This document shows positions 44,388 through 47,904 of a stretch of 64,000 bases of DNA, piece by piece; the stretch's first letter is position 1; each line of letters starts with the position of its first letter. The position numbers and the translations under genes were made by a program. The notes below the pieces were generated by a model. It saw only the letters and a list, made by a program, of their open reading frames with translations. It did no database searches and was not told the DNA's origin. The stretch is taken from positions 225,298 to 289,297 of the forward strand of contig CAWCNK010000008.1 of the NCBI GenBank assembly GCA_963796905.1, in the 5' to 3' direction. The stretch comes from an uncultured Actinomycetota bacterium (GTDB lineage: Bacteria; Actinomycetota; Actinomycetes; Mycobacteriales; Jatrophihabitantaceae).

Positions 44388-44948
44388 GTGACGACATATC
44401 GGATCTGCGTGTTTTGCGGGGCCAGTGCCGGGGCGTCCCCGGAGTACGTGGCGCAGGCCCACCAGCTCGGCGGCGAGCTGGGCCGGCGCGGCATCGGGCT
44501 GGTCTACGGCGCCGGCGGGGTCGGCGTGATGGGCGCGGTGTCCGACGGTGCGCTGGCCGCCGGCGGCGAGGTGATCGGGGTGATCCCGCAGGCCCTGATG
44601 GAGCGGGAGTACGGCCGCACCGACCTCAGCGACCTGCGAGTGGTCGCCACCATGCACGAGCGCAAGGCGTTGATGCACGAACTGGCGGACGCCTTCCTGG
44701 TGCTGCCCGGGGGGCTGGGCACCCTGGAGGAGATGTTCGAGACGCTGACCTGGGCGCAGCTCGGGCTGCAGCACAAGCCACTGGTGGTGCTCAACATCGG
44801 GGGCTACTACACGCCGCTGCGCAACCTGCTCGATCACGGGGTTGCCGAAGGTTTCCTGACCGCGCGGGACCAGGCCCTGGTGCGCGTCGTGGACACCCTG
44901 GACGAGGTCTGGCCGGCGCTGCGGCTGGCCCCGGCGGCCCGGGACTAG
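44388..44948 (+). CDS. LOG family protein (nucleotide 5'-monophosphate N-glycosidase / cytokinin riboside 5'-monophosphate phosphoribohydrolase type, TIGR00730-like)
   Basis: GTG at 44388. Sequence: ICVFCGAS...LVYGAGGVGVMG...HERKALM...PGGLGTLEE (PGGxGTxxE motif). Confidence 0.85.
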   Translation: MTTYRICVFCGASAGASPEYVAQAHQLGGELGRRGIGLVYGAGGVGVMGAVSDGALAAGGEVIGVIPQALMEREYGRTDLSDLRVVATMHERKALMHELADAFLVLPGGLGTLEEMFETLTWAQLGLQHKPLVVLNIGGYYTPLRNLLDHGVAEGFLTARDQALVRVVDTLDEVWPALRLAPAARD

Positions 44949-45023
44949 CCGGCAGGGATCAGCCGGCGCACAACTTATAGCCGGCCTTCTGTCCCATTTA
45001 GTCGGCGCAGGGGTTTATAGACG

Positions 45024-45134
45024 GTCCACACCATATATGCGATGCTGTGGACGCTTCGCCCCTAGTGCCGGTAGTGCCGCGGCCCTTCGCGAAGCGCACC
45101 GCGCACTCGACCGAGGCACTAGTGGGGAACTCGT
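45024..45134 (+). promoter_or_regulatory. Structured leader with SD-sequestering helix upstream of the PurA paralogue (candidate riboregulator)
   Basis: Hairpin gtccaca (45024-30) / tgtggac (45046-52). Helix cgcttcgc (45052-59) / gcgaagcg (45089-96). cccc+tagtgcc (45059-69) pairs with ggcacta+gggg (45115-21 and 45124-27), and the latter contains the GGGG Shine-Dalgarno 7 nt before the GTG at 45135. TAGTGCCG is duplicated (45063-70, 45072-79). Confidence 0.4.
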
Positions 45135-46607
45135 GTGAACACCGTTGCCGCCCCAGCAGTCGCGCCACCTGCCGCTGCTCCGTCCACCGGAAATCTCTCG
45201 CTGCACGGGGTGCGCCAGATCCGGCAGACCCGGTTGGACGAGACGCTGGCCAGGCTCGCCGGGCTGAACATCGCCGTGCCGCCGACCCAGTACGTCACCT
45301 GGATCGGCGACCTGCAGCAGGGCGACGGCGGCAAGGGCGCCATGGTGGACCGGCTGAGCCCCAGCCACCAGCTGATCGTGCGCACCCAGGGCGGCGACAA
45401 CGCCGGCCACACCACGGTCTACACCGGCGCCGACGGGCAGGACGTGGTGCTCAAGAACCACATCGTGCCCTCCGGGCTGCGCCATCCCGGCTGCATCGGG
45501 GTGCTGGGCAACGGCGTGCTGGTCAACCCGGAACGGCTCTCCGACGAGCTGACGGCCTTCGCCGACGAGGTGCCCGACATCGCCGGCCGGGTGCTGGTCA
45601 GCTCCCGGGCGCACCTGGTGCTGCCGCTGCACCGGCTGGTCGACGGACACCAGGAGGATCTCAAGCGGCAGTCCGCCCACGAGATCGGCACCACCCACCG
45701 CGGCATCGGGCCGGCCAACGTCAGCAAGGTCAACCGGATCGGGATCCGGGTCGGGGACGTGGCCGACCTGGCCCTGGTCGAGCAGCGGCTGCGGGCCAAC
45801 GTGCAGTTCTTCAACCTCGACCCGTCGGAACTGGAGCGCAACCTCGACTGGCTCACCGGCTACCGCGAGCTGCTGCTGTCGCTGGCCACCGACTCGCACC
45901 GGCTGATCAACACCGCGGTCGCGGCCGGTTACTCGGTGCTCTTCGAGGGCGCCCAGGGACCGCTGATCGACCTCGAGCACGGCATCTACCCCTACGTCAC
46001 CACCTCGCCCACCGCGATCTACTCCGTCGGCAGCGGCAGCGGGGTGGACCTGAACAGCGTGACCCGGCGGGTCGGGGTGCTCAAGGTGTACCAGACCATG
46101 GTGGGCAACGGGGCGTTCGTGTCGGAGGACCACGGCCCGCTGGCCGACCGGCTGCGCAGGCTCGGGTCCGAGGTGGGCACCACCACCGGACGGCCGCGAC
46201 GCTGCGGCTGGCTGGACCTGGTGCACGCGCACTGGGCGGTCGGGCTGAACCGCTACACCAGCGTGGTGCTGACCAAGCTCGACGTGCTGGACGACTTCGA
46301 CGAGATCGGGGTCTGCATCGCCTACGAGCGCAACGGCGTGATCGAGGCGCACTTCGAACCGGAGCACCACGTGCTGATGGAGTGCACCCCGGTCTACCGC
46401 TACTTCCCGGGCTGGAAGTCCGCCACCACCGGCCTGCACAGCTACTCCGAGCTGCCGGTGCAGGCCCGCCAGCTGATCGACTTCGTCGCCGACTACCTCG
46501 GGGTGCCGATCGGTGGGGTCACCAAGGGCCCGCGGGACAGTGACATCCTGCTGCCGGCGGGCTCCGAGCTGGTGCCGATGCTGGCCGGCTCCCGGCCGGC
46601 CGGCTGA
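45135..46607 (+). CDS. Adenylosuccinate synthetase paralogue (divergent PurA-like, about 60-aa N-terminal extension)
   Basis: 490 aa. Compared with canonical PurA: GDLQQGDGGKGAMVD (canonical GAQWGDEGKGKxxD), GGDNAGHT, IGTTHRGIGPA, GAQGPLIDLEHGIYPYVTTS and TTGRPRRCGWLD. It is clearly homologous but far from housekeeping actinobacterial PurA as I recall it. Confidence 0.85.
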   Translation: MNTVAAPAVAPPAAAPSTGNLSLHGVRQIRQTRLDETLARLAGLNIAVPPTQYVTWIGDLQQGDGGKGAMVDRLSPSHQLIVRTQGGDNAGHTTVYTGADGQDVVLKNHIVPSGLRHPGCIGVLGNGVLVNPERLSDELTAFADEVPDIAGRVLVSSRAHLVLPLHRLVDGHQEDLKRQSAHEIGTTHRGIGPANVSKVNRIGIRVGDVADLALVEQRLRANVQFFNLDPSELERNLDWLTGYRELLLSLATDSHRLINTAVAAGYSVLFEGAQGPLIDLEHGIYPYVTTSPTAIYSVGSGSGVDLNSVTRRVGVLKVYQTMVGNGAFVSEDHGPLADRLRRLGSEVGTTTGRPRRCGWLDLVHAHWAVGLNRYTSVVLTKLDVLDDFDEIGVCIAYERNGVIEAHFEPEHHVLMECTPVYRYFPGWKSATTGLHSYSELPVQARQLIDFVADYLGVPIGGVTKGPRDSDILLPAGSELVPMLAGSRPAG

Positions 46608-46614
46608 GCCGCCG

Positions 46615-47904
46615 GTGCTGGATCGCTACACCAGTCCGGAGCTGGCCGCGCTGTTCTCCGACCGGCACACCTTCGAGCTCTGGCGCGAGGTGGAGCTGGC
46701 GGTGCTCCAGGCCTGGGTGCATGCCGGCGCCGCACCGGCCGGAGCGCTGGCCGCGGCAGCTGCCGTCCCGGCCCCCACCCCGGAGCAGGTCGCCGAGGAG
46801 GAGCGCCGGACCCGGCACGACGTGGTGGCCTTCGTGCACGCCTGGACCGCCGGCATGCCTGCCGAGGCGGCCGGCTGGGTGCACCGCGGGGTGACCAGCT
46901 CCGACATCGTCGACACCGCCACCGGGCTGCGGCTGGCCCGGGCCGGTGACCTGCTGATCGCCGCCGCCGACCGGCTGGTCGCCGCGCTGCGCGAGCACGC
47001 CCTCGCCCACCGGCACACCGTCCGGGTCGGGCGCACCCACGGACGGCATGCCGCCCCCACCGTCTGGGGCCTGCGGGTGGCCGACCTGGCCTTCGGGGCG
47101 GCCCGCTGCCGCGACCGGCTGGCCGGCGCGCGGGACGCGGTGGCGGTGGCCAAGGTGGCCGGCCCGGTCGGCAGCTACGCCGGGCTCGGTCCGGGGATCG
47201 AGCAACAGGTCGCCGCGAGCCTCGGGCTGCGGACCGGGCCGGCCGCGACCCAGGTGGTGCTGCGGGACTCGATCGCGCACTGGACCTGGTGCCTGGCGCT
47301 GCTCGCCGGTATCTGCGAGGCGGTCGCGCTGGAGGTGCGGCACGGCGCCCGCTCGGAGGTCGCCGAGCTCGCCGAGCCGTTCGCGCCCGGCCAGGCCGGC
47401 TCCTCGGCGATGCCGCACAAGCGCAACCCGGTCACCGCCGAGAAGATCTGCGGCCTGGCCCGGGTGGTGCGCGGCTACGTCACGCCGGTGCTGGAGGGGG
47501 TGGCGCTCTGGCACGAGCGCGACATCTCGCACTCCTCGGTCGAGCGGATCTGCCTGCCGGACGCCGCGGCGATCACCGAGCACCTGCTGACCGGCACCGC
47601 CGACCTGGTCACCGGCCTGGTGGTGGACGCCGGCCGGATGCGCGAGGTTCTCGACGGTGCCGGGGAGGTGGTGTTCAGCCACGCCGCGCTGGACGCGCTG
47701 CTGGAGGCCGGCCTGGACCGGCGGCAGGCCTACCGGCTGGTGCAGCAGCACGCCGCCGGCCCGGACTTCCTGCCGGCGTTGCGAGAGGCGGCCAGGACCG
47801 CCGGTGCCGAGCTGAGTCCCGAGCGGTGGGCGGCCGTGGTCGATCTGGACCGGGAGCTGGCCGAGGCCGGCGTGGTCTTCGACCGGCTGGCCGAGCTGCG
47901 CTGA
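46615..47904 (+). CDS. Adenylosuccinate lyase paralogue (PurB-like, fumarase/aspartase superfamily)
   Basis: GTG at 46615 lies 7 nt after the PurA-like stop. Sequence: LDRYTSPELAALFS...VTSSDIVDTA...GRTHGRHAAPT...GSSAMPHKRNP (signature SSxMPxKxN). Confidence 0.85.
   Translation: MLDRYTSPELAALFSDRHTFELWREVELAVLQAWVHAGAAPAGALAAAAAVPAPTPEQVAEEERRTRHDVVAFVHAWTAGMPAEAAGWVHRGVTSSDIVDTATGLRLARAGDLLIAAADRLVAALREHALAHRHTVRVGRTHGRHAAPTVWGLRVADLAFGAARCRDRLAGARDAVAVAKVAGPVGSYAGLGPGIEQQVAASLGLRTGPAATQVVLRDSIAHWTWCLALLAGICEAVALEVRHGARSEVAELAEPFAPGQAGSSAMPHKRNPVTAEKICGLARVVRGYVTPVLEGVALWHERDISHSSVERICLPDAAAITEHLLTGTADLVTGLVVDAGRMREVLDGAGEVVFSHAALDALLEAGLDRRQAYRLVQQHAAGPDFLPALREAARTAGAELSPERWAAVVDLDRELAEAGVVFDRLAELR

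Follow-up and report, generated by a model that had tools for sequence, protein, structure and literature searches.

The window analysed here is a stretch of 64,000 nucleotides from an uncultured Actinomycetota bacterium of the Jatrophihabitantaceae (contig CAWCNK010000008.1, positions 225,298 to 289,297). We focused on three genes within it that encode a LOG-family nucleotide phosphoribohydrolase, an adenylosuccinate synthetase homologue (PurA') and an adenylosuccinate lyase homologue (PurB'), and that lie convergent to an operon built around an orthologue of Ari2, a five-membered-cyclitol-phosphate synthase. The three genes are all on the + strand, in the order given, and span 44388–47904. 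The G+C content of the window is 70–76%, and genes were called by third-position G+C and then checked against profile libraries. The locus consists of the following features:

44388..44948, + strand: LOG-family nucleotide 5'-monophosphate phosphoribohydrolase, 186 aa (PF03641, TIGR00730)
44949..45134, + strand: LOG–PurA' intergenic region, 186 nt (aligned with contigs L001, L002 and L003)
45135..46607, + strand: PurA', accessory-clade adenylosuccinate synthetase, 490 aa (PF00709)
46615..47904, + strand: PurB', adenylosuccinate lyase, 429 aa (Lyase_1 and ADSL_C domains, TIGR00928)

The original prediction, made from the letters alone, had described a PurA-like gene with the P-loop GDGGKGA in place of the canonical GDEGKGK and an N-terminal extension of ~60 aa, followed 7 nt later by a PurB-like gene and preceded, 186 nt upstream, by a LOG gene. 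We found the same arrangement, with an extension of ~51 aa. The LOG stop codon and the PurA' start are 186 nt apart, whereas the PurA' stop codon (TGA, 46605–46607) is followed after a gap of only 7 nt by the GTG start of PurB' at 46615, so that PurB' is translationally coupled to PurA'. The LOG–PurA'–PurB' order is repeated in three more contigs of related bacteria (L001, L002 and L098), and the housekeeping-like genes upstream of the trio are equally syntenic in the first two of these.

The LOG open reading frame (ORF) extends over 44307–44948, and the GTG at 44388 was taken as its start to fit homologues of 186–189 aa. Its product matches PF03641 (E 3.8e-43) and TIGR00730 (186.2 bits against a cut-off of 96.35), carries the PGGxGTxxE motif as PGGLGTLEE, and shares 47–61% identity with the LOG proteins or LOG domains found alongside PurA' at L005, L091, L092 and L095. 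Against the equivalog specific for cytokinin riboside monophosphate (NF058542) it scored 143 bits, below the cut-off of 300. The spacer between LOG and PurA' contains an AT-rich block (TTATAGACGGT...TATATGCGATGCTG, window 45018–45055) that is conserved in L001–L003, and the same alignment shows a conserved GGCACTAGTGGGGA ribosome-binding region ahead of the PurA' start. The AT-rich block may be a promoter or operator belonging to PurA' itself. An Rfam scan of 43800–48200 gave neither a riboswitch nor a leader but a single chance microRNA match (E 0.08), and scans of the locus for sigma-70 consensus promoters and intrinsic terminators found nothing.

PurA' matches PF00709 with an E-value of 9.7e-125 (protein residues 60–471, profile positions 5–415 of 416), and falls just under the cut-offs of both housekeeping purA equivalogs (NF002223, 392.2 against 402; TIGR00184, 372.7 against 395.55). 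We mapped PurA' and its relatives onto the numbering of E. coli adenylosuccinate synthetase (AdSS), with an E. coli reference verified to be identical to 1KJX. PurA' shares with the E. coli enzyme (1ADE/1KJX) the fold family, the length of the catalytic core and all known catalytic and ligand residues, but differs from it by the N-terminal extension (E. coli G12–D13 aligns with PurA' G63–D64) and by eleven signature replacements. In E. coli AdSS we take D13, K16 and H41 to be catalytic, N38, T129, R143, Q224 and T239 to form the IMP site, T300, T301, R303 and R305 to belong to the aspartate loop, and K331 and D333 to confer GTP specificity. Essentially all 60 members of the clade keep these residues unaltered, along with G40, T128, R131, V273, G416 and P417. 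PurA' of the window itself retains every known catalytic, IMP, aspartate and GTP residue.

The clade-specific replacements are W11Q, E14G, K18A, I19M, H37D, Y137N, T226P, S240T, N242P, S270Q and R272M. They are active-site-adjacent, flank the GTP-phosphate and IMP sites, and are invariant or nearly so across the clade; in the P-loop, glycine occupies position 14 in 59 of the 60 aligned sequences, and alanine position 18 in 58. The motif changes noticed originally are therefore real, but they do not represent drift, since they form a conserved clade signature. We speculate that the replacements may change the kinetics of the enzyme or free the committed step from feedback control.

A database search yielded ~60 PurA' sequence clusters at 48–91% identity, followed by a step down to at most 43% for ordinary PurA; the best ordinary matches below this step were not actinobacterial. 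The clade is monophyletic (neighbour-joining bootstrap 100), and its members come from Jatrophihabitans metagenome-assembled genomes, Amycolatopsis, Streptomyces, Dactylosporangium, Nocardiopsis, Actinomadura, Cellulosimicrobium, Bailinhaonella and the betaproteobacterium Piscinibacter. PurA' thus differs from canonical PurA, to which it is at most ~43% identical, also in a patchy, cluster-associated distribution. We conclude that PurA' is not the housekeeping enzyme but a member of a distinct clade dedicated to secondary metabolism, in agreement with the original view of a specialised, non-canonical paralogue. Neither the GDGGKGA clade nor its LOG fusion nor its recurrence across purine-cluster types was found described in the literature searched.

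The genomic contexts of PurA' were obtained from twelve look-ups and one metagenome scan with the clade-specific pattern QQGDGGKGAM. A profile search of genome contigs with the clade alignment was swamped by canonical PurA, which shares the RRCGWLDL pattern, and returned a single clade locus (L008). The arrangements seen were:

LOG–PurA'–PurB' beside an Ari2 cluster in Jatrophihabitans-like bacteria: the window, L001 and L002; in L098, the trio only
PurA'–HAD, then directly GFO–Ari2–DJ1–RidA–PfkB, with a divergent adenosine deaminase: L099
PurA'–HAD–PurB: L093, L097
PurA'–LOG as separate adjacent genes, with a P450: L091, L095
Cyclodipeptide synthase (CDPS)–P450–PurA'::LOG fusion: L092
Isopentenyl transferase (IPT), then PurA'::LOG fusion: L005
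IDI-like, PALP, PurA', methyltransferase and IPT-like genes: L007
PurA'–HAD–GMC with glycosyltransferases, phosphoribosyl pyrophosphate (PRPP)-synthetase-like, ATP-grasp and other genes: L006, L008 (no HAD gene identified), L094/L100, L096/L101
PurA' alone: L004

PurA'::LOG fusion proteins, with PurA' at the N-terminus, make up nine sequence clusters and support the tie between the PurA-like gene and LOG that had been proposed from the window. PurA' subclades follow the genomic contexts (bootstrap 97–100). In L099, PurA' and HAD are the first two genes and are co-directional with the Ari2 genes, a layout that differs from that of the window cluster. The common thread of these arrangements would be that LOG makes a free base, or a HAD phosphatase a nucleoside, from the product of PurA', beside enzymes that consume AMP or adenine.

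For two of these contexts the neighbouring enzyme could be matched to a structure. In L005 the isopentenyl transferase is closest, among PDB entries, to the AMP-using Tzs (2ZE5). Both L005 and L007 (Piscinibacter sp. XHJ-5) have the look of cytokinin-type clusters that possess an AdSS of their own. The P450 of L092 best matches PtmB, which joins free purine bases, in particular adenine, to diketopiperazines (PMC11573659); we predict that this locus is an adenine–diketopiperazine adduct cluster with its own adenine supply.

Some details of these loci are worth recording in their own right. At 9242–12061 of L005 (Streptomyces sp. NBC_01614) the Tzs-like transferase lies directly upstream of PurA'::LOG, among transposases. 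At 6585–12214 of L092 (Nocardiopsis sediminis) a PALP enzyme, the cyclodipeptide synthase and the PtmB-like P450 are followed by the PurA'::LOG fusion. The neighbours of PurA'–HAD–GMC vary between an epimerase, GT4, GT2, PRPP-synthetase-like, ATP-grasp, aminotransferase, thymidylate-kinase-like and MFS genes, and these operons look like an uncharacterised family of nucleoside natural products.

PurB' scored 369.1 bits against TIGR00928, above the equivalog cut-off of 326.2, and its best PDB match is 1F1O (322 bits). The translation keeps GSSAMPHKRNP, which contains the SSxMPxKxN loop, the histidine motif RTHGRHAAPT, and TRHDVVAF. Its nearest relatives outside its own family are hundreds of 435-aa actinobacterial lyases (56–60% identity), which are 75–82% identical to one another across Mycobacteriales, Frankiaceae and Streptosporangiaceae labels and are probably housekeeping enzymes. 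PurB' from the window sits on a long branch and is 74% identical to the L002 copy, compared with ~85% between the Ari2 and phosphorylase proteins of the neighbouring operon and their Jatrophihabitans homologues. It looks like a locally recruited, fast-evolving copy. We had considered PurB' to be of a foreign type, on the assumption that the housekeeping lyase is always of the long M. smegmatis form (4NLE, 112 bits); the 435-aa lyases weaken this idea and make PurB' a fast-evolving offshoot of their family. We also discarded a PurA'/PurB' pair co-inherited throughout the clade, as the PurB proteins beside PurA' in L093 and L008 are not monophyletic with PurB' of the window.

These data bear on one possible explanation of the pair, namely that it represents ordinary housekeeping purA and purB genes linked by chance in this lineage. 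It would fit a PurB' that exceeds the purB equivalog cut-off and whose closest outside relatives are the abundant 435-aa lyases. However, PurA' lies below both purA cut-offs, its clade is patchy and includes strains of Streptomyces, Cellulosimicrobium and Piscinibacter, which are expected to carry a canonical purA, and PurB' has evolved too fast, with less identity between the window and L002 than across the whole 435-aa reference group. We therefore give this explanation hardly any weight.

The operon convergent to the trio comprises twelve genes on the - strand, from 59842 down to 47957:

58802..59842, - strand: GFO/IDH/MocA oxidoreductase, first core gene (PF01408, PF22725; same position in L088, L089 and L099)
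57646..58746, - strand: Ari2 orthologue, five-membered-cyclitol-phosphate synthase (PDB 6K96)
56826..57500 (start approximate), - strand: DJ-1/PfpI-family protein, core gene (PF01965)
56071..56823 (start approximate), - strand: short-chain dehydrogenase (SDR), core gene (PF00106, E 9.7e-40)
55652..56080 (coordinates approximate), - strand: RidA/L-PSP-family protein, core gene (PF01042, E 1.5e-24)
54702..55652, - strand: PfkB-family sugar or sugar-phosphate kinase, core gene (PF00294)
53165..54643, - strand: PGM/PMM-family phosphomutase, core gene (PF02878, PF02879, PF02880; conserved in L088–L090)
52296..53120, - strand: MTAP-family purine nucleoside phosphorylase (NF005876, 289 bits; PF01048)
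51585..52277, - strand: histidine-phosphatase-superfamily enzyme, core gene (PF00300, E 1.2e-44; 45–49% identical in L088, L089 and L090)
50035..51540, - strand: GMC-family FAD oxidoreductase (PF00732, PF05199)
48807..50192 (start codon uncertain), - strand: MFS transporter, probable exporter (PF07690; syntenic in L001 and L002)
47957..48805, - strand: IMPase-family phosphatase, last gene of the operon (PF00459, E 1e-39; syntenic in L001 and L002)

The gene that had been read originally as MIPS is the Ari2 orthologue, which matched PDB 6K96 with 545 bits (E 5.3e-163); its score with M. tuberculosis Ino1 (1GR0) was 194 bits. Ari2 of the aristeromycin pathway is reported to have cyclitol-phosphate synthase activity, converting fructose 6-phosphate to the carbocyclic sugar (PMC9092360, PMC11188666). 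The SDR domain sits in the C-terminal 250 aa of an ORF at 56071–57504. The top NCBIfam match of the PfkB kinase is the ribose-1-phosphate kinase family, under its cut-off. The phosphorylase is closest in the PDB to archaeal and human MTAPs and retains the TDYD motif; it shares 62% identity with its counterparts in L088 and L089, and only 28% with that in L090. We take it to be a coupling enzyme of the Ari9/MacI/MacT type and the proposed consumer of adenine. Those three enzymes are described as adenosine phosphorylases, both producing and using adenine (PMC8599513, PMC8694150).

The order of core families is common to three other Ari2 clusters, from Kitasatospora (L088), Actinoplanes teichomyceticus (L089) and Burkholderia mayonis (L090, with the full conserved core), and most core proteins are 43–71% identical. 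Because of the 6K96-type synthase and of this shared core order, the neighbouring operon is, as judged from sequence, a carbocyclic nucleoside cluster of the aristeromycin/neplanocin type. It resembles the ari cluster of S. citricolor and the mac cluster of M. haikouensis in its Ari2 orthologue and MTAP-type phosphorylase (PMC9092360, PMC11188666, PMC8694150, PMC12648386) and in the core GFO–Ari2–DJ1–SDR–RidA–PfkB–PGM–phosphorylase–HisPhos. In contrast to them, it has a GMC oxidoreductase, an IMPase-like phosphatase, an MFS transporter and the LOG–PurA'–PurB' trio, and is without an S-adenosylhomocysteine (SAH) hydrolase paralogue or coformycin genes. The trio in turn is absent from the mac-like A. 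teichomyceticus, Kitasatospora and Burkholderia clusters. A further resemblance would be the presence of precursor-pool enzymes in the cluster, which is reported for mac.

The Kitasatospora cluster carries three SAH-hydrolase paralogues, and that of A. teichomyceticus has HisG, SAICAR-synthase-like and adenosine deaminase genes, which correspond to a partner of the coformycin type like that of the mac cluster (PMC12648386). We found no AdoHcyase domain among the window genes called and scanned, nor in the Burkholderia cluster, and no coformycin genes (HisG, SAICAR-synthase-like) in the window, unlike in A. teichomyceticus. The product of the window cluster may differ from aristeromycin or neplanocin A. 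The GMC oxidoreductase of the window is 29% identical to a GMC gene at the Burkholderia Ari2 cluster; a relationship to the GMC proteins of the PurA'–HAD–GMC operons was rejected, since the similarity is only at the level of cofactor motifs.

Ari2-like synthases with 58–72% identity were also observed outside actinomycetes, in Burkholderia, Sodalis, Rhizobium, Bradyrhizobium and Sphingomonas (proteins P0152–P0155, P0173, P0212 and P0229), and carbocyclic nucleoside clusters may be far commoner than the few known producers imply. In two metagenomic proteins (P0202 and P0222) an Ari2-like domain is fused to a DJ-1/PfpI domain. These fusions agree with the DJ-1/PfpI gene that adjoins the Ari2-like gene in every cluster seen, and suggest that the two proteins act together.

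We propose that LOG, PurA' and PurB' form an accessory branch that leads from IMP to free adenine and feeds the neighbouring Ari2-type cluster, a reading to which we give about an even chance of being right. PurA' would convert IMP, L-aspartate and GTP to adenylosuccinate, PurB' would cleave this to AMP and fumarate, and LOG would split AMP into adenine and ribose 5-phosphate. The MTAP-like phosphorylase would then join adenine to a phosphorylated carbocyclic sugar derived from fructose 6-phosphate, giving a carbocyclic adenosine similar to aristeromycin or neplanocin. The gene identities, coupling, clade structure, retained residues, recurrent partners and identity of the neighbouring cluster were observed; what we say of substrates, of adenine passing into the Ari2 pathway and of the purpose of the signature replacements is inferred. 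Direct installation of adenine is probable, given that the phosphorylase is a member of the adenine-specific MTAP family; the coupling of PurB' to PurA' in the window points to cleavage of adenylosuccinate to AMP; and the invariant PurA' signature is found also in neighbourhoods devoid of carbocyclic chemistry, which speaks for a universal substrate.

Several points weigh against such a supply line. The Kitasatospora, A. teichomyceticus and Burkholderia Ari2 clusters have no PurA, PurB or LOG gene within 10 kb, so the core carbocyclic pathway does not need the trio. Canonical LOG enzymes prefer N6-substituted AMP, of which adenylosuccinate is one, and LOG in the fusion proteins may act directly on the PurA' product. 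PurA' adjoins an Ari2 cluster in two lineages only, and both are in one PurA' subclade, which makes their independence uncertain. The signature positions are compatible with a substrate shift that PurA' may have undergone. Finally, a search of sequencing runs for the locus recovered soil-metagenome DNA only, with partial matches and no RNA.

The original prediction had tied the trio to the adjacent operon, and had the pair aminate an unusual nucleotide made by it. The first part is plausible, and gains from a second, differently arranged Ari2 cluster (L099) that also carries a clade member. The second part is not supported in that form: the IMP, aspartate and GTP residues are unchanged, the clade also occurs in non-carbocyclic settings (isopentenyl transferase, CDPS/P450 and HAD–GMC operons), three Ari2 clusters do without the trio, the coupling enzyme is of the MTAP type, and LOG is not expected to act on a carbocyclic C–N bond. 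A line that works on ordinary substrates, from IMP through AMP to adenine, is the more parsimonious reading, and the salvage shunt offered as a further option remains a minority one.

This amination idea of the original prediction is the main rival explanation; in it, PurA' and PurB' would aminate or repair carbocyclic IMP to carbocyclic AMP. One source of carbocyclic IMP would be deamination of the product, another the coupling of hypoxanthine with subsequent phosphorylation through the PfkB kinase, and the IMPase or the histidine phosphatase would then free the active 6-amino nucleoside. This fits an operon that encodes phosphatases and a PfkB kinase, the position of PurA' in L099 inside a second Ari2-type cluster and beside an adenosine deaminase, and the signature replacements that flank the IMP site. 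Precedents for such a role exist in ToyG/ToyF and ForA/ForB. The window also has neither coformycin genes nor an SAH-hydrolase copy, unlike the Kitasatospora and A. teichomyceticus clusters, and M. haikouensis makes carbocyclic inosine and neplanocin D besides aristeromycin (PMC12648386). On the other hand, clade members without a carbocyclic neighbourhood carry the same invariant signature, the IMP-contacting residues are unchanged, LOG would have no role, since the carbocyclic C–N bond is not glycosidic, the phosphorylase is of the adenine-type MTAP family, and three Ari2 clusters lack the pair. We consider amination or repair of carbocyclic IMP unlikely, although it deserves to be kept in mind. 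Its more specific version, in which the pair re-aminates carbocyclic IMP made by cellular deaminases and so replaces the coformycin "protector" strategy of mac-type clusters, appears to us a shade less probable still; in its broader form, the GDGGKGA clade may be an AdSS family whose nucleotide specificity has shifted.

In a further rival reading the trio does not serve the carbocyclic pathway at all. PurA' and LOG could constitute an independent module that makes a free N6-substituted purine (e.g. N6-succinyladenine) or adenine for cytokinin-like signalling or purine homeostasis, next to the Ari2 operon by coincidence. The classical substrates of LOG are N6-substituted AMPs, PurA'::LOG fusions and PurA'–LOG pairs usually occur without a nearby PurB, and isopentenyl transferases adjoin PurA' in two lineages. 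Moreover, the trio possesses a promoter-like region of its own and is not encoded on the same strand as the Ari2 operon, and the upstream housekeeping-like genes are just as syntenic. We regard this as quite improbable, given that PurB' is coupled to PurA' in the window, implying cleavage of adenylosuccinate to AMP, that PurA' lies within the Ari2 operon in L099, and that adenine is clearly required in stoichiometric amounts by the neighbouring pathway.

A classic signature of resistance is a diverged duplicate of a primary-metabolism enzyme encoded beside a gene cluster, and PurA' and PurB' might be copies insensitive to a phosphorylated product that inhibits adenylosuccinate synthetase or lyase; conserved, active-site-adjacent replacements would be in line with this. 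Such target duplication seems very improbable to us. Aristeromycin and neplanocin target SAH hydrolase and not AdSS (PMC9092360), the three Ari2 clusters mentioned above have no such copies, those of Kitasatospora and A. teichomyceticus carrying SAH-hydrolase paralogues instead, and the LOG fusion and the IPT, CDPS–P450 and HAD contexts would be left unexplained.

Both cluster-encoded adenine supply and cluster-encoded PurA/PurB homologues are already known kinds of system. Single enzymes that supply adenine are represented by AgmA and by the adenosine phosphorylases (PMC8599513, PMC8694150). AgmA, of the angustmycin cluster, is a LOG-family AMP phosphoribohydrolase with demonstrated release of adenine from AMP for a base-coupling enzyme (PMC8599513), and so resembles the window in that a LOG-family enzyme is encoded with a purine-nucleoside cluster. 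Compared by function and not by sequence, the two differ in that AgmA stands alone, upstream of an APRT-like transferase, whereas LOG in the window is joined to PurA' and PurB', is fused to PurA' in relatives, and would supply an MTAP-like phosphorylase. A complete three-step branch from IMP to adenine was not found described in the literature searched.

ToyG/ToyF (toyocamycin) and ForA/ForB (formycin) are likewise linked synthetase/lyase pairs in purine-nucleoside antibiotic clusters, and carry out an aspartate-dependent conversion of a 6-oxo to a 6-amino group. Those pairs, however, act on base-modified nucleotides that need amination, whereas the base in the window pathway is probably ordinary hypoxanthine or adenine, and the window-type pair is dispensable in homologous clusters; this comparison is one of function, not of phylogeny. 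The list of PurA' clade matches names none from S. rimosus or S. kaniharaensis. PurZ, of the phage 2-aminoadenine pathway, is another PurA-family enzyme with altered motifs in a specialised purine pathway. We rejected PurA' as a PurZ (NF038379, 83.4 bits against a cut-off of 300); it differs from PurZ in that it has the AdSS architecture over its full length and still carries K331 and D333, the residues for GTP specificity.

If the trio does supply adenine from IMP, the QQGDGGKGAM P-loop would be a simple genome-mining marker for natural-product clusters that consume purine bases, including carbocyclic nucleosides, adenine–diketopiperazine adducts, cytokinin-like compounds and the PurA'–HAD–GMC nucleoside family. 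PurA' would possibly also provide a feedback-released AdSS for engineering the overproduction of adenine or adenosine. The window would then hold a variant aristeromycin-type cluster of Jatrophihabitans-like soil actinobacteria, free of SAH-hydrolase and coformycin genes, that may make a different carbocyclic nucleoside.

Three other regions of the window were noted in passing. At 34566–37622 (- strand) a protein of ~1000 aa with an eCIS core domain (PF13699) is encoded by an ORF that overlaps, on the opposite strand, an ORF for a FUSC-family (fusaric-acid-resistance-like) membrane protein at 36874–39816 (+ strand), so that the gene boundaries are ambiguous. Genes of the lactate-utilisation type lie at 27811–30143 (+ strand), a CCG cysteine-rich protein being followed by a LUD/4Fe-4S LutB-like protein; the two ORFs overlap almost from the same start, and one of the frame calls is probably wrong. 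At 7715–11219 (- strand), a Trypco1 (trypsin-co-occurring domain 1) gene comes before one for a trypsin-like peptidase that has a long TPR region, a pairing often seen in conflict or defence systems.

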